From IMG/VR virus record IMGVR_UViG_3300042562_001169: a stretch of DNA of 64,000 bases. One strand, given 5' to 3'. The notes below the pieces were generated by a model, which had not been told where the DNA came from, made no database searches, and saw only the letters and a program-made list of their open reading frames with translations. Below are positions 2,393 through 58,940 of the stretch, piece after piece (positions within the stretch are counted from its first letter, which is position 1; each line of letters begins with the position of its first letter). A program made the translations under genes and the position numbers. The stretch comes from a virus. Taxonomy: Duplodnaviria; Heunggongvirae; Uroviricota; Caudoviricetes.

Positions 2393-3045
2393 GTCAAACC
2401 ATTTCCAAATCTATCGAAATATCCAATAACAGCGTTTGAATACATATATGTGCTATCATACATATTTTTATTATTAATTATTTCTGTTATAATGTGCCAA
2501 ACCAAGTCTAATTCTTGTTCTTGAGCACTCTCGTTATAGACAAAGCTTTCAATAAATTCCCCAAGTGCGTCATCATCAATTTCTCCACCGTTAATCATTG
2601 GGTTAGTTAATTCCAACGATAAATAAAAATTAAACATTTCATGGTCTTCGTAACCAATATCCCAATTCAATACGTAACATTCCGAATTAAGTTTTTCTTC
2701 ATCATGTAACTCAATAGATGTAAAATTACTACACTTGTCATTAATTTTCTGTCTTAATTCTTGGTTAATATAAAAGTATCTTATGTTACCTACTCTACAA
2801 TATTTTTCATAAATGTCTTTTCCCCACTCTGGTAAATCTTTGGTTCCGGTCATTACCATAAAGTCGTATAGTGATTCCTCAAGGTGTCCATCAACAACAA
2901 AATTACTGTAAGATATATCGTTAGGGTTTTCTATATCCCATTCAATAGAGTCCTCGTTAAGTTGAGGATATAATAATAATCCATTGATATTAAGGGGCGT
3001 ATCTATGGTTTTAAGAAATAGTCGTAATAATTTATCTTTGTTCAT
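2389..3045 (-). CDS. hypothetical protein (218 aa)
   Basis: Long ORF convergent with the 2027-2392 gene. Confidence 0.5.
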   Translation of the reverse strand: MNKDKLLRLFLKTIDTPLNINGLLLYPQLNEDSIEWDIENPNDISYSNFVVDGHLEESLYDFMVMTGTKDLPEWGKDIYEKYCRVGNIRYFYINQELRQKINDKCSNFTSIELHDEEKLNSECYVLNWDIGYEDHEMFNFYLSLELTNPMINGGEIDDDALGEFIESFVYNESAQEQELDLVWHIITEIINNKNMYDSTYMYSNAVIGYFDRFGNGLT

Positions 3046-3087
3046 AACAATAAATATATATATTTATATAAATAATGAATATAGTTT

Positions 3088-4448: not shown

Positions 4449-4479
4449 AATATTTTAGATTACAAATATATTTATAAAT

Positions 4480-5565
4480 ATGAGAATTATAATTAAAGAA
4501 AACCAATATTTTAAAATATTAGAGAATACTGATATAGAACCGTCAAAAACAACTATTAAAAACATTTGTGATAGTGAGAAGTTCTGTAAAGCCCAAGGTA
4601 AGATTACCTTTGGTCAGTTACGAGCAATTGTTGAGAGTGCTACAAAACAAAGAATATTTAAACACGTTGGTGAAGGTGGTGTTAAAGCGACAATTAGATT
4701 ATTGCCTTGGTTCTTACCACAACTTATGATTCCTGGTATTGTTGGTGGAGTTATTAGAGCCGTTAACAAAATATTAAAACCAAGTTTAACTGAAACTGAA
4801 AATTATAAAACTTTTTGGGGTAAAGTAATTCTTAAATCATTTCAGGTTGCTGAGGGTGATTTACATTTAAGTGACCCCTTCTCTAAGATATTCTTCATAT
4901 CCGATGGTTTAATGACTATGATGGATGATAAATATAAAATTAGGTTTGCTAGACATATTGCAGAAATTGCTTCAAACAAACCGGATGACGAAGAAGTTCC
5001 TGAGTATTTTGTTGAGAATGAGTTAAGACATTGGGTTAACGATAAGTTTTTATTGGACCCACCATTATCATCAAGGTTAAACGAACAAGAGGAAATTGTG
5101 GATACAACACCCAACTTTAATAAATTAGTTTATCTACCTGAAGAGAAAGCTATGATTGGTGCCTATATGATTACCGGGGATAGTGGGAAGATGATTGATG
5201 TATTAAACATTCACGAACAATTGGATAATGCTGGTTTGTTTATGGATGGTGCGGAATCATACAACATTCATATATTCTTTAGTAAGTTACCAAAATCTCA
5301 AATAGAAATGTTAGGTCCGGTTGAAGGTAAAGAAGGTTTTGAATTTATTAAAATACCTTATTGGTTGTATAAGAAAATGTCTACAGAATTATCTATCAGA
5401 CGATACACAAAATTAAAAAGATTATCGATTGCTCGAAGTCAGGTAAATGATTACTTTCTTAAATTAATTAACAATCCGGATGTTGAGAGGTATTTTAATA
5501 TAGTTGATACGGATGATATTAGTCAACAAAGATTTAAATCATATCAAAGACATTACAAACCTTAA
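4480..5565 (+). CDS. hypothetical protein, 361 aa (N-term MRIIIKENQYFKIL, family-like leader)
   Basis: Long ORF preceded by the tatatttataaat motif 4 nt before the ATG. Confidence 0.55.
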   Translation: MRIIIKENQYFKILENTDIEPSKTTIKNICDSEKFCKAQGKITFGQLRAIVESATKQRIFKHVGEGGVKATIRLLPWFLPQLMIPGIVGGVIRAVNKILKPSLTETENYKTFWGKVILKSFQVAEGDLHLSDPFSKIFFISDGLMTMMDDKYKIRFARHIAEIASNKPDDEEVPEYFVENELRHWVNDKFLLDPPLSSRLNEQEEIVDTTPNFNKLVYLPEEKAMIGAYMITGDSGKMIDVLNIHEQLDNAGLFMDGAESYNIHIFFSKLPKSQIEMLGPVEGKEGFEFIKIPYWLYKKMSTELSIRRYTKLKRLSIARSQVNDYFLKLINNPDVERYFNIVDTDDISQQRFKSYQRHYKP

Positions 5566-8132: not shown

Positions 8133-8972
8133 ATGAAAAGAATTTTAGCGATTGTGGGTGTAGTGGTATTGTTTTTAGCAGTATTTAATTCGTGTGAAGT
8201 AATTGATGCAGGACACGTAGGGGTTAAAGTTGATATGTATGGTTCCGGTAAAGGTGTCAATAACGTAACAGCGTGTACAGGATGGGTATTTTATAATCCT
8301 GTTACAACAAAGGTTTATGAGTTTCCAACTTTTATCCAACACAAAGAGTATAAGAATACTGAGGATGGGGACAACTCTTTCACGGTTAATACAAAAGATG
8401 GTTCCGAGTTCAGAGTATCTCCTATCTTAAACTACTCTGTAAGTGCCGATAAAGCTCCTTCAATCTTTGCGAAGTATAGAAGAACGTTACCGGAGTTAGA
8501 GGAAGGTTTCTTAAAGACGGCTATTTACGACGCATTCCGATTGGCGACCAATAAGTATACCGCAGAACAATTAATCTCTAATAGAGCACTGTTTGAAGTT
8601 GAAGTAAGAAAGTTGTTAGAATCACAGGTTGTTAAAGAAGGATTTATTGTGAATCAATTTACGTCTAATTTAGAATACCCAACATCGTTCAAGAATGCAA
8701 TTAACGCTAAGAACAACGCGGTACAGGCGGCATTAACCGCGGAGAATCAAGTACAGACTGCGACAGCTCAAGCTAAGATTAAAGTGGCGAAAGCACAAGG
8801 GGACGCTGAGGCTTTGTTAACAAACGCAAGAGCTGAGGCAGAATCAAACAAGTTGAGACAATCTACTTTAACACCAATGTTGTTACAACAACAATGGATT
8901 GAGAAATGGGATGGAGCACTTCCAAGTACTCAATTGGCTTCCGGAGCAAACACAATGTACGGATTAAAATAA
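8133..8972 (+). CDS. SPFH/band-7 (prohibitin/stomatin-like) lipoprotein
   Basis: Lipobox VFNSC after a signal peptide. Band-7 core followed by an Ala/Gln-rich coiled coil (AQAKIKVAKAQGDAEALL). Confidence 0.7.
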   Translation: MKRILAIVGVVVLFLAVFNSCEVIDAGHVGVKVDMYGSGKGVNNVTACTGWVFYNPVTTKVYEFPTFIQHKEYKNTEDGDNSFTVNTKDGSEFRVSPILNYSVSADKAPSIFAKYRRTLPELEEGFLKTAIYDAFRLATNKYTAEQLISNRALFEVEVRKLLESQVVKEGFIVNQFTSNLEYPTSFKNAINAKNNAVQAALTAENQVQTATAQAKIKVAKAQGDAEALLTNARAEAESNKLRQSTLTPMLLQQQWIEKWDGALPSTQLASGANTMYGLK

Positions 8973-9035: not shown

Positions 9036-9395
9036 ATGTTAGGATTAGTATTGGTAGGATTATTGATTATAGATTTAATTCTCTTCGTGTCGTTTGAGTT
9101 AGTCAACATTAACGTATGTGGGTACCCACCAAAAGATGAGGATGTTTTAGAGTTCCTTGAGAAAGTTAAAAAAAGTAACCCATCACTTTTAGATGGTGCT
9201 AAACCGGATAGTATGTTACGTTCAAATGGTAACCCGTTTATCTCAAATAGTTTAAAAACTGTTTTAATGGGTTGTTATATTAATGATGTCGGTACAATAC
9301 CAAGATGGTATAAGTCGTATGGTGAGATTCAAAAATTATATGTTGAGTTGGGTGCGAATAGTAGTAAAACAAAAAAAGAAAAATTAGGATTATGA
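9036..9395 (+). CDS. membrane-anchored hypothetical protein (ends ...EKLGL)
   Basis: N-terminal TM segment. Tandem paralog of the next ORF. Confidence 0.45.
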   Translation: MLGLVLVGLLIIDLILFVSFELVNINVCGYPPKDEDVLEFLEKVKKSNPSLLDGAKPDSMLRSNGNPFISNSLKTVLMGCYINDVGTIPRWYKSYGEIQKLYVELGANSSKTKKEKLGL

Positions 9396-9760
9396 TAACA
9401 CTTTTAGTAATATTAGTAATTATTGTGTCAATAGTTTTAGTGGCGGTGGAAATAGTTAATTTATTTGAATTTGGTATACCCCCAAACGATTCTGACATTT
9501 TAGAGATGGTGGAAAAGTATGAGGTTGAGTACGAGGTAGATAAAAAATGGAACGATAAGTTTAAACTTAAAGCTTCTTATAGGTCAAACACTCCTAATAT
9601 AAATCAAACACAGTATAGTATTATATTTCCATACTACATAAGTGATGTAGGTTTAGTACCAATTTGGTATAAATCCACAAAAATAATTGAACAATTATTT
9701 AAAGACAAAATTGCAAAGTCTAAGTATAAAATAACAACAAGAGAAAAATTAGGATTATGA
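9392..9760 (+). CDS. membrane-anchored hypothetical protein (paralog, ends ...REKLGL)
   Basis: Start overlaps the upstream stop. Shares the YPPKDEDVLEFLEK/IPPNDSDILEMVEK core with the previous ORF. Confidence 0.45.
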   Translation: MITLLVILVIIVSIVLVAVEIVNLFEFGIPPNDSDILEMVEKYEVEYEVDKKWNDKFKLKASYRSNTPNINQTQYSIIFPYYISDVGLVPIWYKSTKIIEQLFKDKIAKSKYKITTREKLGL

Positions 9761-16183: not shown

Positions 16184-16364
16184 AAATAAGGAATAAAAGA
16201 TTATGTCGAAAAAGAGGGGCGGAAACCCAAATACGTCGAAAGATGGTGACAAGGAATGTTAGGCAATCCTAAAACCTAACTGCTAAGAATCAAGTGTTAT
16301 GATTCGGGTTAACAACCTCAACTTATGGTGAAACAAAAAAAGGTTCCTTCGGGAACCTTTTTAA
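16184..16364 (+). ncRNA. candidate small RNA or micro-peptide transcript (about 180 nt) between a host-type promoter and a strong terminator
   Basis: Internal hairpins (gggcggaaaccc; gttaggcaatcctaaaacctaac). Only a 19-codon ORF is present (MSKKRGGNPNTSKDGDKEC). Ends at the hairpin aaaaaaaggttccttcgggaacctttttaat. Confidence 0.3.
16334..16364. terminator. bidirectional rho-independent terminator
   Basis: aggttccttcgggaacct flanked by an A-run and a T-run. Confidence 0.7.
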
Positions 16365-16846
16365 TTGGGCATATTTCTTGTAAACACATCACCATATCTA
16401 TCAACAATAATTGTTGGGGATTCGTTAACTCTAAATTTAAGATGGTTAGGGTGTTGAATTGATGTATTTATAATTATTTTAATCCTATTATGTGTTCCAT
16501 TTAACCACATATGATAATCAATACCCGCTACATTGTCGATAACATTAATTGAACATCTAACAACACATTCTTGCATTATTCTTCTTGCTGATTGTATTAT
16601 TGTTGATTCTATATCCATTATAGAATCGTTAATTTCATCTGGGTCAACTCTTTGAAATGAACTACTAGAACCGACAGACTCCTGAGAATGGGGGTTTTTA
16701 TACAAGTTAATTAAACTATTTTCACTTCTATGTAATCTTCTAATAAAATCTTGTTCACCTAAGATATTATTTACAACAATTTCATATATTAAAATTGGTT
16801 TTGGTTCTGTATATTCCCTTAATATCTGTCTAATTAATTCCTTCAT
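16361..16846 (-). CDS. family paralog, ILREE-type leader (MKELIRQILREYTEP...)
   Basis: The internal Met at 16846 is preceded (on the minus strand) by atatatttattact. The track start at 16885 lies further upstream. Confidence 0.5.
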   Translation of the reverse strand: MKELIRQILREYTEPKPILIYEIVVNNILGEQDFIRRLHRSENSLINLYKNPHSQESVGSSSSFQRVDPDEINDSIMDIESTIIQSARRIMQECVVRCSINVIDNVAGIDYHMWLNGTHNRIKIIINTSIQHPNHLKFRVNESPTIIVDRYGDVFTRNMPN

Positions 16847-17216
16847 AGTAATAAATATATATTTTTTCAATAAATGCTTGTGCAATTAAAGTAAATGTGT
16901 TACTTTTGTCCTATCAAACTGAAACAATAACCTTAACACATACAGAAACTATGAAAACAATTACCTTCACAATGCAAGAGATATGGGCGGCTTCTCGTCC
17001 ATCTGTTCAAAAAAGTAAAAAAGCTTACAACAGAAAACCAAAACACAATAAAGATAAGTACTAATATCAAACCCATCTCCGGATGGGTTTTTTATTTAAC
17101 GAGAGTAAAAAGTTAAAATAATTACCTTCGTTTTATTTTGGGGAGTAAAAAATTGATAAAATTACCCTCGTAATATAAACGAGAGTAATTTTTACCTTCT
17201 TGTTATATTTATAGAT

Positions 17217-17585
17217 ATGGATGTTAAAATTAGTGAGGGGAAGTTAGAGTTTTTAATGGATACTATCTTTGATGGTTTGGGTGTAGATGTCAATCGTCTA
17301 TCACACAATTTCCAAGTAAGAATGAGTTATTTAGAATTTTTAGCTTCTGTAACAACAAGACGAGAAATGGTTGCTAAATATGATTTTGAGTGGAATTACA
17401 TAATTGTGTTTGATGATAAGTTTTATGATTTGGTTAAACCTTGGGTTTCTCGGAAAGTTTATGATGTAATTAAAGAAGATTTAATTAAGAGAATTTTTAA
17501 GGTGTATACCAAGAAATATAAATCAATATATAAAGAGGAGCCTAAATCAATTAAATTTGTTGATAAGGATTTTAATAAAGTTTAA
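17217..17585 (+). CDS. hypothetical protein (MDVKISEGKLEF...)
   Basis: ttgttatatttatag lies 3 nt before the ATG. Inverted repeats sit upstream. Confidence 0.5.
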   Translation: MDVKISEGKLEFLMDTIFDGLGVDVNRLSHNFQVRMSYLEFLASVTTRREMVAKYDFEWNYIIVFDDKFYDLVKPWVSRKVYDVIKEDLIKRIFKVYTKKYKSIYKEEPKSIKFVDKDFNKV

Positions 17586-20128: not shown

Positions 20129-20149
20129 ATTTATATGATATTTATTGTT

Positions 20150-20344
20150 ATGAAGTTAATTATAACAGAGTCACAATATGAAACCATCAACGAGATGATT
20201 AAACTTAACATTAAGGTAGGTGATACCATTATGGGTGGAAAATTTAAGAACAAGAAGGTTGTTGTGAAGACAATCGACAAGAATGAAAAGGGGGATATTA
20301 CAATAAACGGTAAACCATTGTTACGTTTTAGAATCATAGAATAA
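20150..20344 (+). CDS. MKIIITE-family paralog (MKLIITESQYETINEMIKL)
   Basis: The internal ATG at 20150 reproduces the family leader. The track start at 20135 lies within the terminator tail. Confidence 0.5.
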   Translation: MKLIITESQYETINEMIKLNIKVGDTIMGGKFKNKKVVVKTIDKNEKGDITINGKPLLRFRIIE

Positions 20345-20673
20345 TGAAGATATTGATTAAAGAAGATAAAAGAGATAGAATTGCCAAACGGTTATTAACT
20401 GAGGAATTCTCCGGAATGTATGAAGATGTTAATTATATGACAGATTCACGGGGGGAACACAAAACAATCGAATACCGTAATGGTGAAGGAATCATAATGA
20501 TTTACGGTAATACTGATAATATTTTATATATCTGTGAAGATGTCACTCGTCCACTTAATCTACTTAGTTACACACCAAAACAACTTAAAGATGTTATTGG
20601 TGAATGGTTCTCAGAGTTTTTTGAATTACCGGTTCAATATATTCATCACGTAAATAAATCAGTGTTAAACTAA
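20344..20673 (+). CDS. MKIIITE-family paralog (MKILIKEDKRDR... C-term EWFSEFFELPVQYI)
   Basis: Carries both the N-terminal and the C-terminal family motifs. Confidence 0.55.
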   Translation: MKILIKEDKRDRIAKRLLTEEFSGMYEDVNYMTDSRGEHKTIEYRNGEGIIMIYGNTDNILYICEDVTRPLNLLSYTPKQLKDVIGEWFSEFFELPVQYIHHVNKSVLN

Positions 20674-20674
20674 T

Positions 20675-21268
20675 ATGAAAGAGTTAATTAAAAAAATATT
20701 ACGAGAGGAAGTTCAGAAGAGATTTACAAAATCTAATCAAAGTTTTGAGCGTCTTATTATTAAACAGATGGAGTCTTTAATATCCGAAACAAATAGAGTT
20801 GTTGTCCCACCTGAAGAGAATTATGGAAACTTTAATGAGGAGTGGTGTAAAGGTGATAAAATTATTATGCAGGCAAGATACTTTTTCAGTAGTGAAGATA
20901 GTGATGAAGAAAAGTTTTTTGGTGGTGATTTATATGTTAATAAAGAAGAAATTGATTTTTTATCTCAAATGTTACAGGTTAGAAAACCCTATTTACTTAA
21001 TGTAATTACCGAATGGTATGATGAGAAATACGCTACCAAGTTTGGTCAAGAAACCGGACACCCGGAATTGGAGATTGATGAGACTCACGAAACGGATAGT
21101 GACCATAAATGTTATAAAATGATTAATACTTCAAACCTAAGTAGAGAATATATGATTGATTATATTGATACAAATACATTATATAAACTTAGTGAATTGG
21201 AAAAACTACCTGATGATGAGTTAGAAAGAAAATACCGAAGTGTTTATAATATCCAATTAAATAAGTAA
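20675..21268 (+). CDS. family paralog, ILREE-type leader (MKELIKKILREEVQKR)
   Basis: Tandem array member. Confidence 0.55.
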   Translation: MKELIKKILREEVQKRFTKSNQSFERLIIKQMESLISETNRVVVPPEENYGNFNEEWCKGDKIIMQARYFFSSEDSDEEKFFGGDLYVNKEEIDFLSQMLQVRKPYLLNVITEWYDEKYATKFGQETGHPELEIDETHETDSDHKCYKMINTSNLSREYMIDYIDTNTLYKLSELEKLPDDELERKYRSVYNIQLNK

Positions 21269-21648
21269 TGAAAGTATTAATAACTGAGAGCAGATTAGAA
21301 AGTTTAATCATTGATTACTTAAATGATTCGTATTACCCTGATTATGGGTGGGCAAATCCTGATGTTTATCAAAAAGATGTTAAACAATATGGTGATGTTC
21401 TTTTCTTTGTTGATGACCGAGAATCTTATATTTATTATGGTTGTAATGCAAACGCCGGTCCGGAAGATGAGTTCTTTGCGGGTTATGGTCATCTACATAA
21501 TTATAAATGTCCTTTACTGTCAATATACCCCCTTATAACTCAAAGATTGGATTCTACTTTTGGTGACATATGGAAACCAATATTCAAGAAATGGTTTGAA
21601 GATAATACAGGGTTAGAGGTTACTCAATTAACAACAAATTTCATATAA
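21268..21648 (+). CDS. MKIIITE-family paralog (MKVLITESRLESLIIDYLND... C-term KKWFEDNTGLEVTQL)
   Basis: Carries both the N-terminal and the C-terminal family motifs. Confidence 0.55.
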   Translation: MKVLITESRLESLIIDYLNDSYYPDYGWANPDVYQKDVKQYGDVLFFVDDRESYIYYGCNANAGPEDEFFAGYGHLHNYKCPLLSIYPLITQRLDSTFGDIWKPIFKKWFEDNTGLEVTQLTTNFI

Positions 21649-21947
21649 TGAAAGTATTAATAAAGGAAAGTAAGTATAATAATTTAATTGAGAACTATAT
21701 CCTCAATGGTTATCCTGTAGTTAAAAACGTGACATTTACAACAAAGGATGTTTACTTGGCTAGTGGTAATAAAAGTGAGAGAAGAACAATTCAAAGAAAC
21801 ATCATTAATGTTGGGTTTAGAGGAGGTGAGATGCAGAATAGTCCAACACGAACATTAAGAGAAATTAGAGCTGATATTAATCGTATGTTTGGTTTGGATA
21901 TTGATATGTCAGGTTCACATTGGGGTATTGAGTATAAAATGTTGTAA
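21648..21947 (+). CDS. MKIIITE-family paralog (MKVLIKESKYNNLIENYILNGYP)
   Basis: Tandem array member. Confidence 0.55.
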   Translation: MKVLIKESKYNNLIENYILNGYPVVKNVTFTTKDVYLASGNKSERRTIQRNIINVGFRGGEMQNSPTRTLREIRADINRMFGLDIDMSGSHWGIEYKML

Positions 21948-21949
21948 GT

Positions 21950-22279
21950 ATGAGAATAGTAATCACAGAAAATAAAAGAGATATGTTATTTAGAGAGGAG
22001 TTTAAAAACCTGTTTAATAAATTAACTCCAACAAGAGCCGGACATACCGAGAACATTATCTACATATACTTTGATGAGGTATATGATGATAATGCGGTTA
22101 CAGGGTTGGTATATAGACCAAGTAATCGTCAATTAATTATATATCCGGATTACTTTATTAGTTTAAGAATGTTTGTTTCATCTGAAGAAGAACTAAAGGA
22201 AATGATAGGAATATGTTATGAGGAATTAACTGATAAAATAGTTAGATATTCTTGGATTTGGATAGATAATGAGTTATGA
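21950..22279 (+). CDS. MKIIITE-family paralog (MRIVITENKRDMLFREEF)
   Basis: Tandem array member. Confidence 0.55.
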   Translation: MRIVITENKRDMLFREEFKNLFNKLTPTRAGHTENIIYIYFDEVYDDNAVTGLVYRPSNRQLIIYPDYFISLRMFVSSEEELKEMIGICYEELTDKIVRYSWIWIDNEL

Positions 22280-22605
22280 AAATATTAATCACAGAAAATA
22301 AAAGATACCAATTAGCCTACAAGATATTAGACGATATTTTGAATGGATTGACTCGTGAGGACATTGATTTAAATAAGGATTCCGTATTTAGTAACCAACA
22401 AATAATATTCAGAGATAACAGCGATGACATTTTTATGTGGTGGTCCGAAAAATACGATTTATTGGAAGTTAATAAAGTTATGTGGGAACCACTAAGATTG
22501 TTCTCATTCAGTGGAGAAGAACTTGAAAGAGTTATTCATTGGTGGGTTAAAAATAGATTAAGAATAGAACCGGAGGAGATTAATTTAATTGGTGACTATT
22601 ATTAA
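22276..22605 (+). CDS. MKIIITE-family paralog (MKILITENKRYQLAYKILDD... C-term HWWVKNRLRIEPEEI)
   Basis: Tandem array member. Confidence 0.55.
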   Translation: MKILITENKRYQLAYKILDDILNGLTREDIDLNKDSVFSNQQIIFRDNSDDIFMWWSEKYDLLEVNKVMWEPLRLFSFSGEELERVIHWWVKNRLRIEPEEINLIGDYY

Positions 22606-23056: not shown

Positions 23057-23104
23057 ATTTCAAAGATACAACATATTTTTTGTTCTCACAAGATATTTAT
23101 CACT

Positions 23105-23512
23105 ATGGACATACAGGAAAACGTATATAGAATTAAACAAATAATGACTGAAGGTAAGGACGCTTATGTCTCAAGAGCTCGTTCTGACCAAGAGTATGAG
23201 GAAGAATATCCAAAATGGAAAAAAACTATAATTAAACTTTTAGAGATGGAAATAGATTCAAAGGCAGAAATTAACAATGGTAAAATAATAGTTTTGCTTA
23301 ATGGGAAAAACCTTGACAAAAATCTAATTAAATATGATAAAATAAATGAAAGATTATGGTATGATTATTCCTTACAAGAAAATTTGGAAGGTTATATACC
23401 ATACGGTTATTTATCAAGACATTTTAAATACGGACTTCAGGACTTCTTCAAAAAACATTTCCCGGACTATGGTGTTAGAGAACTAACGGCTGCGAGTTTA
23501 GTAAGTTACTAA
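23105..23512 (+). CDS. family paralog, MNLNE-type leader variant (MDIQENVYRIKQIMTEGKD)
   Basis: gatatttatcact lies before the ATG. Confidence 0.5.
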   Translation: MDIQENVYRIKQIMTEGKDAYVSRARSDQEYEEEYPKWKKTIIKLLEMEIDSKAEINNGKIIVLLNGKNLDKNLIKYDKINERLWYDYSLQENLEGYIPYGYLSRHFKYGLQDFFKKHFPDYGVRELTAASLVSY

Positions 23513-24783: not shown

Positions 24784-24810
24784 AGGGAAAGTAATTTTTC
24801 CCTTTTTTTT
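24784..24810 (+). terminator. rho-independent terminator
   Basis: gagggaaagtaatttttccc followed by tttttttt. Confidence 0.6.
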
Positions 24811-24822
24811 ATATTTATAGTT

Positions 24823-25593
24823 ATGAACTTACACGAAGATATACAAAGAATAAGACAAATGATGATTTCTGAGGAGATGGTCCAATCAGATGCGTGGAAA
24901 TCAATCAAAAAAACATTAGACATTCTTAAAAAGAAAAAGAAAGTTTTAATCTTAAGTTGTTCCAATAGATATAATTGGGATGAAAAAAACCTTGACATAC
25001 CAAAATCAAAGATGATTGCAATGTATCTTAACGATGAGTTAAAAGACTCAGTGTTAATTGATGTTTCCGAACTTAACATTGTTCCTTGTGAGGGGAATGT
25101 ATCAAGAAAAGACGGGAACAGTTGTGGATTACTTAAATCTATGCTCAAAGATAAGAAAAAGAATCCATCCGGAGACCATAGATGTTGGGCAAGTTATAAC
25201 AATCCAAAGGATGAGTTATGGAAGATATCCAAAGAGTTATTTGAGTCAGATGCTGTTGTATTCTTTAGTTCAATTAGATGGGGACAAACCAATATGTTCT
25301 ATCAGAATTTAATTGAGCGATTGACTTGGATTGAGAACAGACACGCAACATTGGGGGAATCAAATCTTGTTAAAGATATTGAGACAGGATTCATTTGTGT
25401 TGGACAGAATTGGAATGGTGAGAACGTAACTGAAACACAGAAAGAAGTTCATAAGTTTTATGGATTCAAACCAAACAATGACTTGTATTGGAATTGGCAA
25501 TATACCAAAGATGTGAATGATGAAACTCAAAAATCATATAAGGATTCACACAAGAAGTTTATTAAAGATACAAAATTACCTGAAGATAAATAA
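24823..25593 (+). CDS. flavodoxin-like-fold NAD(P)H oxidoreductase-like protein carrying the MNLHEDIQRIRQMM family leader
   Basis: KKVLILSCSNRYNWDEKNL and ESDAVVFFSSIRWGQTNMFYQNLIERL resemble the FMN-reductase/Flavodoxin_2 family motifs. Confidence 0.45.
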   Translation: MNLHEDIQRIRQMMISEEMVQSDAWKSIKKTLDILKKKKKVLILSCSNRYNWDEKNLDIPKSKMIAMYLNDELKDSVLIDVSELNIVPCEGNVSRKDGNSCGLLKSMLKDKKKNPSGDHRCWASYNNPKDELWKISKELFESDAVVFFSSIRWGQTNMFYQNLIERLTWIENRHATLGESNLVKDIETGFICVGQNWNGENVTETQKEVHKFYGFKPNNDLYWNWQYTKDVNDETQKSYKDSHKKFIKDTKLPEDK

Positions 25594-26318
25594 TGAACTT
25601 ACGACATGACATAAAAAGAATATTAAGGGAAGAAACAAATAAAGATTTAACTTCGGTAATAGAAATGTTATTAGAGGGATTTGTTAATGACCACAAAGAC
25701 ATTCTTTGTAAGGTTGAGGTTAAGCACCCGGACAAGAGAACCAAACTACCACATTCGGATAATGTTTATGAGAATTACAGAGCAACATTTTATTTAATTG
25801 CTCATAAAGGTGGGTATTCAACAACAAGAGCTCAATTGATGGATAACGTAATGAATGAGGTGTGGGATTTGGTATATAATTATACCGGACAGAAATTAGA
25901 TATGTTTACCAAACACGTAAAGAGTTGTGACGATATTATAAAAGAGAGTAAAGATAATAGTATTTCTGATATGATAAAAACTTTGGGGGTTTCTGATGCC
26001 ATTAAGTATTTTGGGAATTACTACACAATTGAGCCATACTTAAAAGTGGTTGATAAAGTTAATTTTATTAAAGAAAAAGTTAGAGAATTAAGTGATGATG
26101 GTAGTGGTGTTGGTTTACACGAGATAAATGAAGAGCCACTTCATTATAGTGATGAAGATGGGGAGGAACATCAAATAGAATGGTTAGGACTAACAAGTGT
26201 AGACATTAGTGTATATGAAGATGAGTATAGTGGTCATTTAAGGGACTATTATTCTAAGTATGAAAGTTTACCTGTGCAAATAATTGAGGAATTGGTTGAG
26301 ATATTATTAAACCACTAA
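25593..26318 (+). CDS. family paralog (MNLRHDIKRILREETNKD)
   Basis: Tandem array member, coupled start. Confidence 0.5.
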   Translation: MNLRHDIKRILREETNKDLTSVIEMLLEGFVNDHKDILCKVEVKHPDKRTKLPHSDNVYENYRATFYLIAHKGGYSTTRAQLMDNVMNEVWDLVYNYTGQKLDMFTKHVKSCDDIIKESKDNSISDMIKTLGVSDAIKYFGNYYTIEPYLKVVDKVNFIKEKVRELSDDGSGVGLHEINEEPLHYSDEDGEEHQIEWLGLTSVDISVYEDEYSGHLRDYYSKYESLPVQIIEELVEILLNH

Positions 26319-26321
26319 GAT

Positions 26322-26867
26322 ATGAATTTAAACGAGAACATACATAGAATCCATCAGATGATGGGTGTAGTGAGTGAAGATGTGAGTCCAAACACTGTTA
26401 AAACAATAATTGATATATTAGGTATTAGAGATGCTATTAATTATTATGGGGGTTATGAGAACCTTAAAAAATATCTAAATTTGGTTTATGATAGGAAGAG
26501 TGGTAAATGGGTGCACGCGAGTACATTACAGACCAATCCTGTTGATTTAAATACTATTACATCAAGAGAAGATAAGATTGAGTTTATTAAGGATACAATT
26601 TTTACTCAATACTACGGATTGTTTACTTATGGAGATGAAGGTTGGGACGAGAGTGATTATTCTGTGTTAGAGAGTACTGAAACTTATGAAAAGGTAGCAT
26701 TTACATACTATACTGATGAATTAAATGTAACAACATTTTATAGAAATGAGAATGGTGAGTTTTCATCTCAAACCGAAAATGATGACCATAGTGAAACAAT
26801 TAAATATGAGGATTTACCGGATGATATGATTAATAACGCATTTGAGTTTATAGCTAAAAAAATTTAA
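26322..26867 (+). CDS. family paralog (MNLNENIHRIHQMMGVVSED)
   Basis: Tandem array member. Confidence 0.5.
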   Translation: MNLNENIHRIHQMMGVVSEDVSPNTVKTIIDILGIRDAINYYGGYENLKKYLNLVYDRKSGKWVHASTLQTNPVDLNTITSREDKIEFIKDTIFTQYYGLFTYGDEGWDESDYSVLESTETYEKVAFTYYTDELNVTTFYRNENGEFSSQTENDDHSETIKYEDLPDDMINNAFEFIAKKI

Positions 26868-26869
26868 TT

Positions 26870-27328
26870 ATGAATTTAAACGAGAACATACATAGAATCC
26901 ATCAGATGATGGGGATTATCAATGAGAATAAAGTGGTTGATGTTGTTCAAGAAATGGGGTTATACCAAGCCACTCGTTATTTTGGGGGTTATGACAAAGT
27001 TACAAAATTAATGGGGGATTATGTGTTCTCAAATGAAGAAATGATTGATTTTATTAGAGAGGCTATAAAACATTTAGCTTACAAACATAATTCAACCGGG
27101 ATATCTACGTATGAATTAAATATGAATTCTATTCCATATGGTTCTCCTGATGAGGAGTTACATCAAATTGAGTATTTCAACCCGGAGTATGTTACCATAG
27201 ATGTTTATGGTGGTGAAGAGTATGAAAGACACAGAAGTAGTTATACTGAACGATATGAGGATTTGGATGATAATACATTAGATGAGGTTTTCCTGTTTAT
27301 GGTTGACGCAGTAGAACACTACAAATAG
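26870..27328 (+). CDS. family paralog (MNLNENIHRIHQMMGIINEN)
   Basis: The first 15 residues are identical to those of the previous ORF. Confidence 0.5.
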   Translation: MNLNENIHRIHQMMGIINENKVVDVVQEMGLYQATRYFGGYDKVTKLMGDYVFSNEEMIDFIREAIKHLAYKHNSTGISTYELNMNSIPYGSPDEELHQIEYFNPEYVTIDVYGGEEYERHRSSYTERYEDLDDNTLDEVFLFMVDAVEHYK

Positions 27329-27330
27329 AT

Positions 27331-27744
27331 ATGAGTTTACAAGATACCATAAGAAGAATATTAAGAGAGGAATCCTATTCTCCGGCGAGTGATGAATATA
27401 CTCCGGGGGAATATATTGTTCATAAATCAAATCCTATATGGAGAGACAACATAGAACTTACCGGATTACAAACATCGGTGGGGGAATGTTATCAATCACA
27501 CGTCGGTGACGATGAAGAATGTAAACCATCCATATTTGCAACAGATTCATTAGATGAAAAAGATATGTTTGATTCCACATATGACGATGACATTTGGATT
27601 ATCAATACGGAATGTGCCGGGGTTACTTGGTATAAAGACAAACATTTTGATGGTGGATATTACAAACATCATATAGTTACATTCGAGAACATATCACCGG
27701 ACTGTCTTAGATTATTATATAAAGGAACGGGGAAAAGTTATTAA
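27331..27744 (+). CDS. family paralog (MSLQDTIRRILREESYSPA)
   Basis: Tandem array member. Confidence 0.5.
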   Translation: MSLQDTIRRILREESYSPASDEYTPGEYIVHKSNPIWRDNIELTGLQTSVGECYQSHVGDDEECKPSIFATDSLDEKDMFDSTYDDDIWIINTECAGVTWYKDKHFDGGYYKHHIVTFENISPDCLRLLYKGTGKSY

Positions 27745-28128: not shown

Positions 28129-28482
28129 TTAATCAATATGATATTTAGTGATATGATATCTACCACATTTATTACAATGCCAAGTAGTATATACAACCTT
28201 TTCAACGTGTAGATTATATCTTTCCATAAACCAAGGGATAAAGATATCGTTTATATCATAACCACTTGTAACACCAAACATAGATACTAATTGATTTGAT
28301 ATCTCCTCAGATAATTCAACTATTCCATTATCACGATTAAATGTGAAAGACATATCGTCACCACTATCTTTATAGATAATAAATCTATGACCAACGGAAT
28401 ACTTCCTTAAGTTACCATAGTCCATATCCAACCATTTGGTAACGACATTTTTTCTCTTGTTCTCTGTGATTATTACTTTCAT
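28129..28482 (-). CDS. MKIIITE-family paralog (MKVIITENKRKNVVTKWLDMDYG; C-term PWFMERYNLHVEKVV plus CNKCGRYH ribbon)
   Basis: Carries both the N-terminal and the C-terminal family motifs. Confidence 0.55.
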   Translation of the reverse strand: MKVIITENKRKNVVTKWLDMDYGNLRKYSVGHRFIIYKDSGDDMSFTFNRDNGIVELSEEISNQLVSMFGVTSGYDINDIFIPWFMERYNLHVEKVVYTTWHCNKCGRYHITKYHID

Positions 28483-28784
28483 ATTTGTTCTACTCTATGA
28501 CATTTCTTGGCTCTAAACCCAAACTTTTTATTACCCCAATCCAATAACAACTCACTAACTTCATCGTTATCAAATCCGAACATACTACGGATAAAATCCC
28601 ATATTTCATTTAAAACATAGAATCCTTTTACTCTACTGTTGTAAAGCATTTTGAACATTCCCTTATCGGATATGAATACTCCTTCGTGTGAGGGGAATAT
28701 CATCTTTTTTAAGTCGGGATATTCCTCTTCTAACCAATTAATGGCGAGACGGATTCGTTTGTTCTCTGTGATTATAATCTTCAT
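28479..28784 (-). CDS. MKIIITE-family paralog (MKIIITENKRIRLAINWLEEEYPD)
   Basis: Coupled to 28129-28482. Confidence 0.55.
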   Translation of the reverse strand: MKIIITENKRIRLAINWLEEEYPDLKKMIFPSHEGVFISDKGMFKMLYNSRVKGFYVLNEIWDFIRSMFGFDNDEVSELLLDWGNKKFGFRAKKCHRVEQI

Positions 28785-30875: not shown

Positions 30876-31326
30876 TAGTTCTCTTCCACCACTTCAGGAA
30901 CTTGTTATCCGGAGAAAGGTGGGGGATGATAAGTTTGTCTATCAATATCATTATGATGGATAGAGAACCCATTACCATTAGGAAGATTAAAAATGTCAAC
31001 ATAGTTTATATTATTAAGAGTTACCGGTGATAATCACCGTCAATTAGTAAAGATACAAATAAATTATGACATTCTCAACAAAAGGGGGGATTGTTTAATA
31101 ATAATATTAAATAAAAAAAATAAACCCTTAGTGTGATTATGAGATTCGTAATAAAATGGGGGATTTATATAAAAAATATAAAGCAGGTTGGAGTCTACTC
31201 TTCCACCACTCGGTCCGCCCCCTGTCGGGTTGATTACCGATTCAGTGATACAAATATACGACTAATAATTTACACCACCAAACAAAACCGGGGATTATTT
31301 AATATTATTTCAATATATTTATCTGT

Positions 31327-31809
31327 ATGGCAAAAGAAGAAACACCAAAGGACATTACCCCAAAGAAAAGAAGGGGAATAGATATTGCAGTCAATGGACT
31401 AAGAAAGACATATCCATTTGTAATAGGGTATGAGGATGACCCGGGAGACCAATACGCAGCATCACACTACATTGATTTAATAATAGACCTACAGAAACTA
31501 TCTGACTATATGGATGTTCCTGTTAATCCCTATTGGGTGAACTTCGCAAGTCATCCGGACTATAGAAGGATATACTCCTTATGGTCCTACCTGAAGTTCC
31601 CCGAGGAAATTGAGGTTACATATGATAGAGACATATCAAACCATCCCGGATATAAATTGGGGAAGGATGTAATCTATCTACTTGAATCTATATATGAATA
31701 CATCCCCGAGGAATACAAACTGTTCTATGAGTTCACCTCTGAGTTTGCCCCCGACAAACCTATGACACTCCCCGTGACTCTAAAGGTTAACGGATACATT
31801 ATGACATAA
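31327..31809 (+). CDS. hypothetical protein (island gene, atypical codon usage)
   Basis: ORF preceded by atatatttatctgt. ccc/aga/ata-rich codon usage. Confidence 0.45.
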   Translation: MAKEETPKDITPKKRRGIDIAVNGLRKTYPFVIGYEDDPGDQYAASHYIDLIIDLQKLSDYMDVPVNPYWVNFASHPDYRRIYSLWSYLKFPEEIEVTYDRDISNHPGYKLGKDVIYLLESIYEYIPEEYKLFYEFTSEFAPDKPMTLPVTLKVNGYIMT

Positions 31810-35981: not shown

Positions 35982-36314
35982 ATGTTTTCAGCAGGTGGAG
36001 TTTATGTAATGGTAGCAGGAATCCTATTGGGATTAGCTGTTATAGGTGGGTCAGTTTATTATGTTAATAAAATGTTTGCTGATAACACTCAGGAAATATT
36101 GGTTCGGTTTATTTTATTAATATTCACCTCATTGGTTGCGTTATTTATTGTTGATAAGGTAATTGCTTGGCAGGTTAAACTATTGAGTGATGAGCAGAAT
36201 GGGCAATTATTTGATTTGATTAAAACATTGGTGTTAATGATATTCTCGTATTACTTTGGAACTAAAGAAGGAGTTGAAACCAATGGTGACCAAAATAAGA
36301 AAGATAAAGAATGA
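35982..36314 (+). CDS. small membrane protein (3 TM)
   Basis: The ATG at 35982 is preceded by gggggatatttatt. The track start at 35946 lies in the repeat/terminator. Confidence 0.45.
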   Translation: MFSAGGVYVMVAGILLGLAVIGGSVYYVNKMFADNTQEILVRFILLIFTSLVALFIVDKVIAWQVKLLSDEQNGQLFDLIKTLVLMIFSYYFGTKEGVETNGDQNKKDKE

Positions 36315-36616
36315 AAATTATTATAACAGAAGAACAGTATGGTAGAATGTTTAATTCCAAACTTTGGTTAAGACGTAACTATGATTTGGTTAAACAGGAG
36401 TTGAAGGCTACAATGGACTTCACCCGGGACCGTATCTGTGATAAAGATGAATTTGAAAATTTTGAATATTATTTCTTCTCCGTGTTTATGGATTGCCTTC
36501 ACCCTTATTATTATGAGGAAGAGAATTTTGATTATAAGGAATTTCAAACCACGTTAACTGATATGTTCTATGTTGAATGTACCGAGTTTTATTTTAACGG
36601 TAGAGAGAAATGTTAA
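36311..36616 (+). CDS. MKIIITE-family paralog (MKIIITEEQYGRMF)
   Basis: Tandem array member. Confidence 0.55.
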   Translation: MKIIITEEQYGRMFNSKLWLRRNYDLVKQELKATMDFTRDRICDKDEFENFEYYFFSVFMDCLHPYYYEEENFDYKEFQTTLTDMFYVECTEFYFNGREKC

Positions 36617-36650: not shown

Positions 36651-37016
36651 ATGAGAATTATTATAACAGAAAGTAAATTTAAAAGTATGGTTACCAAAAT
36701 GGTTGGGTATGATTTATCCCACCGTATTGAGATGATTACAAGTTGGGAGAATTTAACCGGTTCGGAAAAACATAATGTATTTGGTGATAATAAATCTATT
36801 TTTGTTCAGTATCAAAACCATTATGGTCCGATGTATATATTTTCAAATTTTAAAGGACATAATTATTTGGCTCAAAATCAAAAAGGTAAACTATGGTTTA
36901 TTGTTGATACAAGTACTGGATACGAAATAGATTACTATGATTTTTTACAAATGCTTAATCTTGATATGACGGGTATTAGTTTAAGAAAAATAATCGATGA
37001 ATTTGCTGAAGAATGA
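36651..37016 (+). CDS. MKIIITE-family paralog (MRIIITESKFKSMVTKMVGYD)
   Basis: The ATG at 36651 is preceded by gggatatttatttgat. The track start is upstream, within a hairpin. Confidence 0.55.
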   Translation: MRIIITESKFKSMVTKMVGYDLSHRIEMITSWENLTGSEKHNVFGDNKSIFVQYQNHYGPMYIFSNFKGHNYLAQNQKGKLWFIVDTSTGYEIDYYDFLQMLNLDMTGISLRKIIDEFAEE

Positions 37017-37351
37017 AAATAATAATTACAGAAAGTAAAGTTGGGCAAGTAAAAAATTTAGTACAAGAAATTATTGATGATGAGTTAAATAACTTACGTC
37101 AAGAGGCTGATGAAGAGTGGGGTTTGGGTGAAATGGATGAGATAAATGAGGTTGGTTCTGTTGAAAAGATTGTTGTTGATGAAATAAAAACAACTGATGG
37201 TATTAGTGTTAATGTCAATCTTTATTTAAACACAGATAGAGAAGATTTTGAAATAATTTTACCAATGATTGAATATACTATTGAGCAATGGATTCCTAAT
37301 GCTAAAATTCATATAAACAAAATATATCTAAATGAAAATAATAATTACTGA
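37013..37351 (+). CDS. MKIIITE-family paralog (MKIIITESKVGQVKNLVQEII)
   Basis: Coupled start. Confidence 0.55.
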   Translation: MKIIITESKVGQVKNLVQEIIDDELNNLRQEADEEWGLGEMDEINEVGSVEKIVVDEIKTTDGISVNVNLYLNTDREDFEIILPMIEYTIEQWIPNAKIHINKIYLNENNNY

Positions 37352-37652
37352 GAGACAGAATAATTTATTGATGGAGGATTTACCCATTAGTCTTCGTAGA
37401 CGAATTAATTATAATATTCTTAAAGACCATTTGGATTTTTCCATATTAGAATCCGTTAATCCTTGTGATTATAGTACATTAGGGGATTTTATTGGTGAGA
37501 TGTGTGATATGATGGTTGTGGATTTTTTAGATGATTTTGAATATGATAGCGGTCTAAAAGTTAGTCCAAAAGATAAAGATGATTTTTATTATTTTATGAC
37601 TGATAATTTTGCTGATTACCTTCAAGAATTTTATGATAAACAATGTGCGTAA
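37332..37652 (+). CDS. MKIIITE-family paralog (MKIIITERQNNLLMEDL)
   Basis: Array member. Confidence 0.55.
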   Translation: MKIIITERQNNLLMEDLPISLRRRINYNILKDHLDFSILESVNPCDYSTLGDFIGEMCDMMVVDFLDDFEYDSGLKVSPKDKDDFYYFMTDNFADYLQEFYDKQCA

Positions 37653-38177: not shown

Positions 38178-38639
38178 ATGAAAAAGAAAATTATAAAATT
38201 AACGGAATCAGATTTAAAAAACATTGTGATGAGAATTATCAATGAACAATTTGATATGGACTACTACGACATTATTTTGGATTTATATAACGAGGTTGGT
38301 CTTGAGGGTATGACTGATGAAGAAATTGAATATTTGAAAAGTGGCGGTGAGAGTAATGTCCCTGAAAGATTTTTGGGTGGAGACTTGGATATTGATTCTG
38401 AGGAATCTGAAGATTTTGGTGGACTTGATAGATTCAAGGAAATTATGGACGGATACAATCATAAGATTGTGGATACCGCTCCCGACGGTAAGTTGAGAGT
38501 TGTCTTTAGAGAAAACCCTGAGATATTGGAAAGACTTGATGGTGTGGTTCCGGAATCATTAATAGAAGTTAGACAAGGACATATAATCATTCTTGTTCCT
38601 GAAAATTGGACGGATGATATTTTCGGAGAAGAAATATAA
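38178..38639 (+). CDS. family paralog, acidic (MKKKIIKLTESDLKNIVMRIINEQ)
   Basis: ORF; terminator downstream. Confidence 0.5.
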   Translation: MKKKIIKLTESDLKNIVMRIINEQFDMDYYDIILDLYNEVGLEGMTDEEIEYLKSGGESNVPERFLGGDLDIDSEESEDFGGLDRFKEIMDGYNHKIVDTAPDGKLRVVFRENPEILERLDGVVPESLIEVRQGHIIILVPENWTDDIFGEEI

Positions 38640-39226: not shown

Positions 39227-39487
39227 ATGAAAAAGTTGGTATTCAAATATTTTGACACATTTTGTTACGGGGAACTAATTCCGGATGAGGGTGACTCTAA
39301 TTGGATGAAACCATTTATTGAGTATAATGCGTTTGGATATTCAATTAACGAAAACTATCTATTTTATAATGGAGGTTTGATGGACGATGTTATGGGGATG
39401 TTTAGTGTCGGTAAAGCTGACTTTAGAGAATATTTAATGGAGTGGTTTCAAAATAGATATAATTTACCGGTATCAAATGTTGTGTAA
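39227..39487 (+). CDS. MKIIITE-family variant (MKKLVFKYFDTF...; C-term EWFQNRYNLPVSNVV)
   Basis: ATG sits 4 nt after a TAtcTTTG box (39215-39222), so the mRNA is probably leaderless. Confidence 0.5.
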   Translation: MKKLVFKYFDTFCYGELIPDEGDSNWMKPFIEYNAFGYSINENYLFYNGGLMDDVMGMFSVGKADFREYLMEWFQNRYNLPVSNVV

Positions 39488-39504: not shown

Positions 39505-39783
39505 ATGAATGAGTTAACAGTTGCTGTAACGTGGAGACGAAAAGATAAAACAAATTATTTTGATATTAAATTCCCAAAGGACCAAGAGTTATTATCGGTT
39601 AAGGAATCAATAATGATGTTGGCTGCCGGTATGTCTATGTTAATTAAAGCCGGACACAAACGAGGAGATTTTAAAGATTACGAAATGTTTGAACACGTAA
39701 TTGATTATATGAAAAGTGAGTTTGTTTCTACAGAATCATTTGAAGACGCTACTATCCAACCAAACACAATTAAGAGTGAGTAA
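39505..39783 (+). CDS. hypothetical protein
   Basis: ORF. Confidence 0.45.
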   Translation: MNELTVAVTWRRKDKTNYFDIKFPKDQELLSVKESIMMLAAGMSMLIKAGHKRGDFKDYEMFEHVIDYMKSEFVSTESFEDATIQPNTIKSE

Positions 39784-40036
39784 TAAAAGAGAACAAAACA
39801 TTTTTAAATTTTTAGATATTACCTATGGTAGTTGTATATTATTTGAAAACGATACGTGTTACTATATTGCCGGTGTTTGTATCTATTACAAAAGTTCTAA
39901 ACAAGTTGGGTGGACAGGTGTTACTCATTTAGATTTAGTTAGAACTTTTGGTGAAGGAAGATACTACCCCCAACTAAACAAATGGTTCTCTGAGAAATAT
40001 AATTTAGAAGTTATTAAAACCCCCATCTTTAATTAG
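39716..40036 (+). pseudogene. family member lacking an ATG start (IFKFLDITYG ... NKWFSEKYNLEVIKTPIFN)
   Basis: Clear family C-terminal motif. The only upstream in-frame start is GTG, inside the preceding gene. Confidence 0.3.
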
Positions 40037-40056
40037 ATTGGGGGATATTTATTTAT

Positions 40057-46879: not shown

Positions 46880-46892
46880 GATATTTATTGAT

Positions 46893-47775: not shown

Positions 47776-47796
47776 TTTACACAGATATTTATAGTT

Positions 47797-58888: not shown

Positions 58889-58940
58889 ATCAAATTTTCT
58901 TTTATTATAAATACTAACATATTTTAATATATTTATAAAT

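Follow-up and report, generated by a model that had tools for sequence, protein, structure and literature searches.

A portable N-terminal peptide tag on unrelated proteins of an uncultured phage lineage, and its possible likeness to T4 capsid-targeting sequences

What should be made of a stretch of phage DNA in which gene after gene, whatever the rest of the encoded protein looks like, begins with nearly the same handful of residues? This question is raised by 64,000 nucleotides (nt) of IMG/VR record IMGVR_UViG_3300042562_001169 (hereafter “the window”, to whose positions all coordinates refer), where open reading frames (ORFs) starting with variants of the peptide MKIIITESQYKKLL recur. A preliminary description of the window had taken this N-terminus and a shared C-terminal motif for the paired terminal strands of a single diversifying scaffold domain with a hypervariable core. 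The N-terminal motif is real and far above chance expectation; it is, however, a portable peptide tag and not a part of any one fold, and the explanation we favor, albeit tentatively, is that it works like the capsid-targeting sequences of phage T4 or the six-residue propeptide (MELITE) of the T4 Alt protein.

A six-frame scan of the window turned up 18 ORFs that begin with M[KR].[ILVM][ILVM][TKS]E, and the variant MKIKITETQ at 47797 raises the count to 19, so the expansion initially put at “at least 20 ORFs” is real, with 20 being reached only if degenerate copies (MDVKIKYDK at 42693, MNIKISKNQ at 40057 and MDVKISEGK at 17217) are also admitted, whereas the array at 20150-22605, said to comprise eight members, is made up of seven genes, of which six are tagged (20150, 20344, 21268, 21648, 21950 and 22276). 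Related but tag-free loci of Flavobacterium phage vB_FspM_immuto (hereafter immuto) and immuto-like phages served as controls and gave 0 occurrences of the pattern in 1.15 Mb, as did 40 kb of the huge phage LR745206, while the exact degenerate DNA pattern was matched 7 times in 596 Gb of bacterial genomes versus at least 120 times in IMG/VR viral contigs. The window, its sister loci and the loci found through the tag itself together provide 309 distinct tagged ORFs, whose consensus reads M1 K2 I3 I4 I5 T6 E7 S8 Q9 Y10 x x L13 and whose conservation fades past position 15; Glu7 is present in 306 of the 309, and position 5 is hydrophobic in all of them (Ile in 295). Tagged genes account for 11-14% of the genes in the regions examined.

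That it is the peptide on which selection acts follows from the codons of these 309 ORFs: information at codon positions 1 and 2 is mostly 0.9-2 bits across codons 2-7 and 9, information at position 3 of codons 3-6 (which encode amino acids with three or four synonymous codons) is 0.4-0.8 bits, and Ser8 is drawn from both serine codon families (TCN 108 times, AGY 57 times). This agrees with the preliminary description, which had placed the conservation at the protein level, and rules out conservation at the level of DNA. It also largely refutes the idea that the shared gene start is a gene-shuffling site comparable to the promoter-stem-loop cassettes of T4-type phages, with the peptide as a by-product; although a terminator hairpin, a promoter-like element and a tag do stand at the head of gene clusters, and duplication could have spread such a start, the third codon positions are free and the copies are too divergent in their DNA to recombine while the peptide stays fixed, which leaves this explanation hardly credible.

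Nor does the tag resemble the more familiar kinds of protein N-termini. Read from the sequences, it does not match a Sec, Tat or lipoprotein signal peptide, as it consists of three to four hydrophobic residues followed by T-E-S-Q and contains no Cys lipobox, and it does not match a ribbon-helix-helix domain (strand-helix-helix, approximately 45 residues) either, since the structure models described below have a first helix, a four-stranded sheet and further helices, and the bodies following residue 15 are unrelated between clusters. The charge of the tagged proteins was considered and set aside as not distinctive (median isoelectric point of 5.5 vs 5.8 for the other genes of the window). A literature search for the peptide strings and the immuto phage returned nothing relevant.

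The portability of the tag becomes apparent once it is trimmed off. With 12 residues removed, the tagged ORFs of the window and sister loci fall into 28 clusters, only three pairs of which were linked in a profile-profile comparison of the 12 largest, and with the loci found via the tag included, the 309 ORFs (up to 526 amino acids (aa) long) form 82 BLAST clusters after removal of their first 12 residues. One of the tagged proteins in related contigs has a Phage_lysozyme domain above the Pfam cut-off, another gives a weak DHH-like match, and others resemble, by eye, leucine-rich-repeat, cell-wall-hydrolase and membrane proteins. What the tag most commonly heads in the window is an α/β domain separate from it, and no similarity to this domain is detectable in the tagged proteins at 20150, 4480, 36311, 37013, 37332, 41751, 42320 and 47797; the body of the 42320 protein is instead homologous to immuto gp099, which is untagged and has a different N-terminus. 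The constraint on the tag also depends on its N-terminal position, because five of the seven internal copies in two-domain fusion proteins of the α/β family have lost K-I-I-I, helix 1 being retained.

The α/β family itself comprises proteins of approximately 100-130 aa, with about 11 copies found by BLAST and profile searches within the window (20344, 21268, 21950, 22276, 28129 on the minus strand, 28479 on the minus strand, 39227, 39716-40036, 41186, 42693 and 46893). A profile search of 1.84 billion representative proteins recovered 718 clusters at 50% identity (E <= 0.001), nearly all of them single-domain and matched from residue 1. Pfam, PHROGs and NCBIfam searches with family members and larger neighboring proteins returned nothing for the α/β family, with no significant Pfam or PHROG match, so the family is indeed as unrecognizable as it had first seemed. 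Its C-terminal motif W[FL]xxKYxLxV, also pointed out preliminarily, is real, being found near the end of eight ORFs, namely 39716-40036 and seven called genes, against 0.27 such genes expected in shuffles (maximum 3).

AlphaFold2 models of two members, built from deep alignments, reached a predicted local distance difference test (pLDDT) score of 90.8 (20344) and 90.5 (46893) and have the same topology, in which a first helix is followed by three or four strands, a pair of helices and one last strand. In both models, the C-terminal motif corresponds to the end of the last long helix and the final strand, residues 1-5 or 1-6 are unstructured, helix 1 begins at residue 7-9, and the C-terminal strand joins the sheet without any contribution from the N-terminus. 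The pairing of terminal strands, for which structure prediction had been proposed as a check, is therefore not seen in either model. In favor of the single scaffold domain, one could point out that six of the eight ORFs with the C-terminal motif are also tagged (seven with the degenerate 42693), that these ORFs belong to one α/β family, and that both models match the same uncharacterized proteins of uncultured phages, and nothing else, in BFVD, a database of predicted viral structures. The domain, however, also exists without the tag (39227, 39716-40036) or with a degenerate one (42693), and the tag sits on many unrelated proteins, so that we regard a single domain held together by both motifs as very improbable.

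The label “hypervariable, diversifying” was an overstatement as well, as the two paralogues tested have stable orthologues at 55-98% identity across metagenomes. What can be said is that, in three sister contigs, tagged genes have recognizable orthologues but diverge faster than their neighbors, with median amino acid identities of 79 vs 87%, 72 vs 86% and 43 vs 82%, some of the lowest values of which may represent paralogue matches. This pattern fits accessory genes under relaxed or shifting selection rather than hypervariability, and as to the initial picture of arms-race arrays, the faster evolution at least agrees with an accessory or arms-race function. Likening the α/β domain to T4 IPI* in anti-defence or host takeover would be no more than an analogy.

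The tagged and related ORFs of the window are as follows (the promoter-like motif and the class C leader referred to are described further below).

476-994, plus strand: tagged ORF of 172 aa (MKLIITESK), body weakly similar to the α/β family.
4480-5565, plus strand: tagged ORF of 361 aa (MRIIIKENQ), body unrelated to the α/β family; promoter-like motif abutting the ATG.
20150-20344, plus strand: tagged ORF of 64 aa (MKLIITESQ), a small basic domain and the first gene of the array; hairpin terminator and promoter-like motif upstream.
20344-20673, plus strand: tagged α/β protein of 109 aa (MKILIKEDK), C-terminal motif WFSEFFELPVQYI; one of the two modeled members.
20675-21268, plus strand: untagged array member of 197 aa, starting with the class C leader MKELIKKILREE and showing an internal resemblance to the C-terminal helix of the family.
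21268-21648, plus strand: tagged α/β protein of 126 aa (MKVLITESR) of the 46893 subfamily, C-terminal motif WFEDNTGLEVTQL.
21648-21947, plus strand: tagged ORF of 99 aa (MKVLIKESK); the family profile matches its N-terminal 36 residues only.
21950-22279, plus strand: tagged α/β protein of 109 aa (MRIVITENK).
22276-22605, plus strand: tagged α/β protein of 109 aa (MKILITENK).
28129-28482, minus strand: tagged α/β protein of 117 aa (MKVIITENK), C-terminal motif WFMERYNLHVEKVV.
28479-28784, minus strand: tagged α/β protein of 101 aa (MKIIITENK); promoter-like motif 5 nt upstream of the ATG.
36311-36616, plus strand: tagged ORF of 101 aa (MKIIITEEQ), separate cluster C9.
36651-37016, plus strand: tagged ORF of 121 aa (MRIIITESK), separate cluster C1; promoter-like motif upstream.
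37013-37351, plus strand: tagged ORF of 112 aa (MKIIITESK), separate cluster C6.
37332-37652, plus strand: tagged ORF of 106 aa (MKIIITERQ), separate cluster C4.
39227-39487, plus strand: untagged α/β protein of 86 aa, beginning at the first helix (MKKLVFKYFDTF); C-terminal motif WFQNRYNLPVSNVV.
39716-40036, plus strand: probable untagged α/β copy with an uncertain start, C-terminal motif WFSEKYNLEVIKT.
41186-41506, plus strand: tagged α/β protein of 106 aa (MRVIITEDK), C-terminal motif RWLKKTYGIDPIKL.
41508-42323, plus strand: ORF of 271 aa, in which a helical N-terminal stretch of 81 aa is followed by an entire internal tag with its own Met (MKIVITERQ, at 41751) and then by a DUF5872-like basic domain.
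42320-42691, plus strand: tagged ORF of 123 aa (MKIVITESQ), residues 31-120 of which are 44% identical to residues 83-166 of immuto gp099.
42693-43064, plus strand: α/β protein of 123 aa with a degenerate tag (MDVKIKYDK), C-terminal motif WFEKVYGYNVKTI.
46893-47285, plus strand: tagged α/β protein of 130 aa (MKIIITESK), C-terminal motif WFWDKFHVPVKTI, the other modeled member, with 141 metagenomic relatives; promoter-like motif upstream.
47797-48915, plus strand: tagged ORF of 372 aa (variant MKIKITETQ), unrelated body; terminator and promoter-like motif upstream.

The small basic domain of 20150 is also found inside a 290-aa tagged protein of locus L163, and the 4480 protein shares, by eye, the stretch IKNICDSEKFC.AQG.ITFG with a tagged, membrane-spanning-looking protein of IMG/VR cluster K13. 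The arrangement at 41508-42323 is conserved in locus L001 and may yield either two products via an internal start or a precursor that is cut.

Which known system, then, places one short peptide in front of many unrelated proteins? The internal proteins of phage T4 are diverse and have in common only a 10-residue capsid-targeting sequence, which is removed by the prohead protease gp21 and works on foreign proteins, and is therefore portable (PMC3012670, PMC9026906). The tag of the window is, similarly, a short N-terminal peptide on unrelated, fast-evolving small proteins (cargo of approximately 8-20 kDa), and its end, φ-x-E, is the motif at which gp21 cleaves, present in the (I/L)-x-E form as I-T-E at positions 5-7. 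T4 gp21 cuts Alt, a protein that is packaged and ejected, at ITE-6, releasing six N-terminal residues, and at LTE-619, releasing a C-terminal piece (PMC5694885); the I-T-E is identical in the tag and lies at nearly the same distance from Met1 (6 vs 7 residues), while LTE is the motif of a further leader class (class D) of the window’s lineage. The propeptide of the T4 capsid protein gp23 is 65 residues long (PMC9026906) and reads ...GSFLTE65/AEIGG around the cut, here marked by a slash (a sequence at 100% identity in 499 records). The cleavage-site Glu is invariant when gp23 is aligned with the capsid proteins of immuto-like phages (QIVSE/A, QLVTE/A) and of a tag-bearing clade (ALLSE/S, ALLNE/S), to which the tag’s own IITE/S may be compared, and in the gp21-like proteases of the group, the catalytic core is preceded by a conserved φ-x-E-[S/G] motif.

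Were the tag to work in this manner, it would direct unrelated accessory proteins into the core of the assembling prohead, where a T4-type (gp21-like) protease would cut after the invariant Glu7 (I-T-E/S), and the mature proteins would be enclosed in the head along with the DNA and reach the host cell during infection, with the α/β domain carrying W[FL]xxKYxLxV being the most expanded cargo family. While we infer targeting, cleavage and injection from the likeness to T4, the genomic context of the tag points in the same direction. The head module of immuto is T4-type and in T4 order (portal, core genes, protease, scaffold, capsid protein), and three loci fetched solely for their tag (L127, L201 and L232) turned out to contain T4-type head modules with gp21-like proteases. 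L232 has two tagged paralogues between a portal-proximal gene and the protease. In L127, the protease is directly followed by a class C leader gene and then by a tagged 258-aa gene and its paralogue with a displaced variant of the tag (MEKNKIIIESQ), the latter two flanking a scaffold-like gene. The L315 clade, which was defined by its terminase and is thus unbiased for tags, has a gp21-type protease and, in 6 of 60 loci, class D leader genes in the same slot. In T4, these slots are occupied by the prohead-core genes 67, 68 and 22. The major structural proteins (capsid, scaffold, portal) carry no tag. As a side observation on the same locus, the portal gene of L232 (70-2730) encodes 886 aa vs approximately 630 aa in relatives, and its N-terminal stretch looks intein-like by eye.

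The likeness has its limits. In sequence, the tag is unlike the T4 targeting sequence MKTYQEFIAE, sharing with it only Met-Lys and a Glu, and the claim is therefore that it “works like” that sequence and not that it is “homologous to” it. The proposed propeptide would be 7 residues long vs 10-19 in T4, and, unlike in T4, the conservation passes the proposed cut. Three to five T4 proteins carry such a sequence, whereas the tag occurs on dozens of families; Alt, too, is a single protein in T4, where its propeptide is no family-wide tag, and the residues after its cut differ. Giant phages offer a further parallel, as φKZ, 201φ2-1 and SPN3US have approximately 50 head proteins, paralogous families among them, and a gp21-related protease cutting after Glu, and as the diverged SPN3US paralogues gp53 and gp54 begin identically, which has been likened to the T4 targeting sequences (PMC5694885). 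The giant-phage propeptides differ, however, in that they are mostly longer than 100 residues and not common to unrelated families, with a motif of S/A/G-x-E instead of I/L-x-E.

Several observations weigh against a cleaved prohead-targeting propeptide. Neither the head module nor the protease of the window’s own lineage was recovered, as IMG/VR searches with capsid proteins and terminases gave other clades only and exact-protein look-ups at the ends of the window gave either no record or only non-structural genes upstream; the T4-type protease has thus been seen only in immuto and in the other tag-bearing clades (L127, L201, L232 and the L315 clade). The conservation extends six residues past the proposed cut (S8, Q9, Y10, L13), beyond the needs of a simple leader, and the proportion of tagged genes is far above the handful of T4 proteins with a capsid-targeting sequence. 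The unstructured first residues of the two models are a weak guide, since low pLDDT is common at a chain terminus and no proof of disorder, and φ-φ-x-E is also approximately two-fold enriched at N-termini in the control loci, so that an excess of it was dropped as a lineage-specific sign. Lastly, in nearly every locus of the terminase-defined L315 clade, the large terminase gene is immediately preceded by a gene with the tag or a near-variant of it (the 1 kb ahead of the large terminase yields 52 leader matches in 77 loci), and L201 also has a tagged gene in this position. Judging from its place and sequence, this gene may encode the small terminase, a protein that does not belong to the prohead, although PHROGs, a PDB sequence-profile search and Pfam gave no significant match for it. 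In approximately 60 loci of the clade, the gene found there (L315:9113-9967) is a fast-diverging one of about 283 aa with a conserved C-terminus that looks winged-helix-like by eye.

The same observations bear on a different explanation, in which the tag is not cut but retained as a docking or oligomerization module, the β-prone K-I-I-I-T strand and the start of helix 1 binding in trans, either by supplying a strand to a common hub protein of the phage or the host or by pairing with the equivalent strand of another subunit, so that many unrelated proteins would be gathered in one place or made oligomeric. The hydrophobic character of the tag, its richness in β-branched residues, its unplaced position in the monomer models and the reach of its conservation to the helix start (S-Q-Y-x-x-L) would all suit such a module, as would its presence on proteins of all sizes and types, including a probable DNA-binding protein adjoining the terminase (small terminases form rings). 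Yet no partner was identified, the loss of constraint in internal copies goes unexplained, as an internal strand could still dock, and the match of ITE/LTE to the T4-type and capsid maturation sites (PMC5694885) would have to be a coincidence; all in all, we consider a docking module unlikely.

The tag is not the only leader peptide around. Three further N-terminal leader classes occur in the same lineages and have 0 matches in 1.2 Mb of the control loci: class B (MNLQENIxRIxxMMG and then φ-φ-x-E), class C (IRRILREE) and class D (KLTESDLxRIVKRVINE), all examples seen of which contain φ-x-E. Their occurrences in the window are as follows.

23105 (23105-23512), 24823, 26322 and 26870, plus strand: class B leaders, MNLNENIHRIHQMMG and then φ-φ-x-E.
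25593 and 27331, plus strand: class C leaders, IKRILREE.
38178-38639, plus strand: class D leader MKKKIIKLTESDLKNIVMRIINE, containing L-T-E-S.

Five of the class B and C genes form a tandem run at 24823-27744, while 23105 stands apart, with unrelated genes in between. The class D pattern of the window may be written as KLTESDLKNIVxRIINE, and a further leader-class gene is found at 16361-16846 on the minus strand.

Another shared feature precedes the genes themselves. The ATG with which each gene cluster opens has, 4-5 nt ahead of it, a conserved element [G/T]ATATTTAT (16 matches vs 2.0 expected), in many cases with a G+C-rich hairpin and a T-run upstream; the element is located at the following positions.

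20137-20152: promoter-like element.
23092-23107: promoter-like element.
24810-24825: promoter-like element.
40044-40059: promoter-like element.
46880-46895: promoter-like element.
47784-47799: promoter-like element.
3043-3058, minus strand: promoter-like element, further site.
4467-4482: promoter-like element, further site.
16844-16859, minus strand: promoter-like element, further site.
17204-17219: promoter-like element, further site.
28784, minus strand: promoter-like element, further site.
31314-31329: promoter-like element, further site.
36651: promoter-like element, further site.
58928-58943: promoter-like element, further site.

The TAnnTTTA of this element resembles the Bacteroidota -7 promoter box TAnnTTTG, a likeness from which leaderless mRNAs, organized in terminator-promoter cassettes, are predicted. 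Such mRNAs bring up the possibility that the tag is a translation leader, its first codons or the nascent peptide boosting initiation or early elongation, and that a proven start is being reused on mRNAs without a Shine-Dalgarno sequence, often leaderless ones. Expression is raised by Lys/Ile-rich peptides at the N-terminus, the SKIK tag being an example, and the tag of the window is likewise short, rich in Lys and Ile, placed right behind Met1 and borne by unrelated proteins; 12 of the 14 starts directly abutting the TAnnTTTA element carry a leader of some class; A-ending synonymous codons are preferred over those of the gene bodies in codons 2-8, a weaker bias that is gone by codon 10; and the tag matters solely at the N-terminus, on any kind of protein. 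SKIK-type tags, however, are engineered and four residues long, whereas 13 residues are conserved here, Thr, Glu, Ser and Gln among them, and the retention of T6, E7, S8, Q9 and L13 as amino acids, with free third positions and both serine families, exceeds what a translational ramp would need. Classes B and C, moreover, are not Lys/Ile-rich, the presumably most expressed genes (those for the capsid, scaffold and portal) lack the tag, and the immuto-like phages, although similarly AT-rich, do without it. A translation leader thus strikes us as a rather unlikely explanation.

The window also encodes a protease, which might be thought of either as the processing enzyme or as the consumer of the tagged proteins.

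49268-50002, minus strand: ClpP-type protease subunit, not of the prohead protease type.

Its candidacy as the prohead protease was rejected because it scores as a genuine ClpP (219 bits to the ClpP model vs 59 bits to the model of the ClpP-related head-maturation protease). In another reading, the tag is a putative N-terminal degron, which an unfoldase partner of the phage ClpP (e.g., the host ClpX) would recognize, limiting the lifetime of the tagged proteins. Among 18 loci of the lineage, 16 have ClpP at 74-100% identity, the exceptions being L019 and L020 with 54%; in L016 it is 97% identical vs 53% for the 130-aa tagged protein, and immuto has neither tags nor a ClpP match; the Met-basic-φ-φ-φ start is also, as we take it, loosely similar to a published class of ClpX N-terminal signals. 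The co-occurrence of tag and ClpP is, however, a single contrast, the tag-free 40 kb of LR745206 surround a ClpP that is 60% identical, no unfoldase gene was found, and tags on lysozyme-type and head-module proteins fit poorly with rapid turnover, which makes a degron quite improbable. The nearest database relatives of the window’s ClpP are those of the huge uncultured phages LR745206 and LR756502 and of the Prevotella Lak megaphages.

As to the phage in question, the window has a G+C content of approximately 31% and about 137 mostly small, densely packed genes, with no transfer RNA genes found in it. Searches of cultured and GenBank phages with 8 kb of the window’s DNA and with the 130-aa family member (as protein) gave no match and hence no cultured member of the lineage; the closest cultured relative is immuto, which infects Flavobacterium and has counterparts of the thymidylate synthase and several neighboring proteins at 44-64% identity and in the same local order. 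Orthologues of the window’s small proteins sit on metagenomic contigs of 207-322 kb, and a 343-aa protein encoded in the window recurs in 129 blocks of the public collection. The source is therefore an uncultured, abundant and probably jumbo phage lineage, with a host that is probably, although on weak evidence, a member of Bacteroidota. Three of the seven exact matches of the tag pattern in bacterial genome bins (L398-L404) lie on short contigs (3.8-8.3 kb) in Bacteroidota bins (Flavobacterium, Ginsengibacter and Bacteroidales), and these could be mis-binned phage fragments, a weak hint as to the host.

Two further groups of genes in the window deserve a brief mention. The thymidylate synthase (55392-56663) is 423 aa long, with its Pfam match split into two stretches, and the ORFs upstream of it (52497-53051 and 53053-53715) contain short stretches 34-37% identical to parts of the thymidylate synthase. 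At 9036-9760, downstream of an SPFH/Band 7 gene (8133-8972), two adjoining paralogous ORFs of 119 and 122 aa are 37.5% identical, and both begin, by eye, with a hydrophobic, probably membrane-spanning segment.

Returning to the T4-like propeptide, its broadest version would be that the tag and the three other leader classes make up a general cargo-loading system, by which more than 80 unrelated families, amounting to about a tenth of the genes in the examined regions and including peptidoglycan hydrolases, probable enzymes and arrays of small α/β proteins, would be brought into the capsid for co-injection, which we deem possible but doubtful. If this were true, the tag alone would be a sequence-only marker of injected effectors (anti-defence or takeover proteins), the T4 counterparts of which include a restriction inhibitor and an enzyme modifying the host RNA polymerase; the injected proteins of a whole clade of abundant environmental phages could be read from sequence, yielding a large list of candidate effectors, and the tag might be a natural short means of loading foreign proteins into T4-type heads. 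The α/β domain is, in any case, a large protein family devoid of annotation, and a 13-residue linear signal at the N-termini of more than 80 unrelated families is an undescribed and unusually clear one, even if its mechanism proves to be another.

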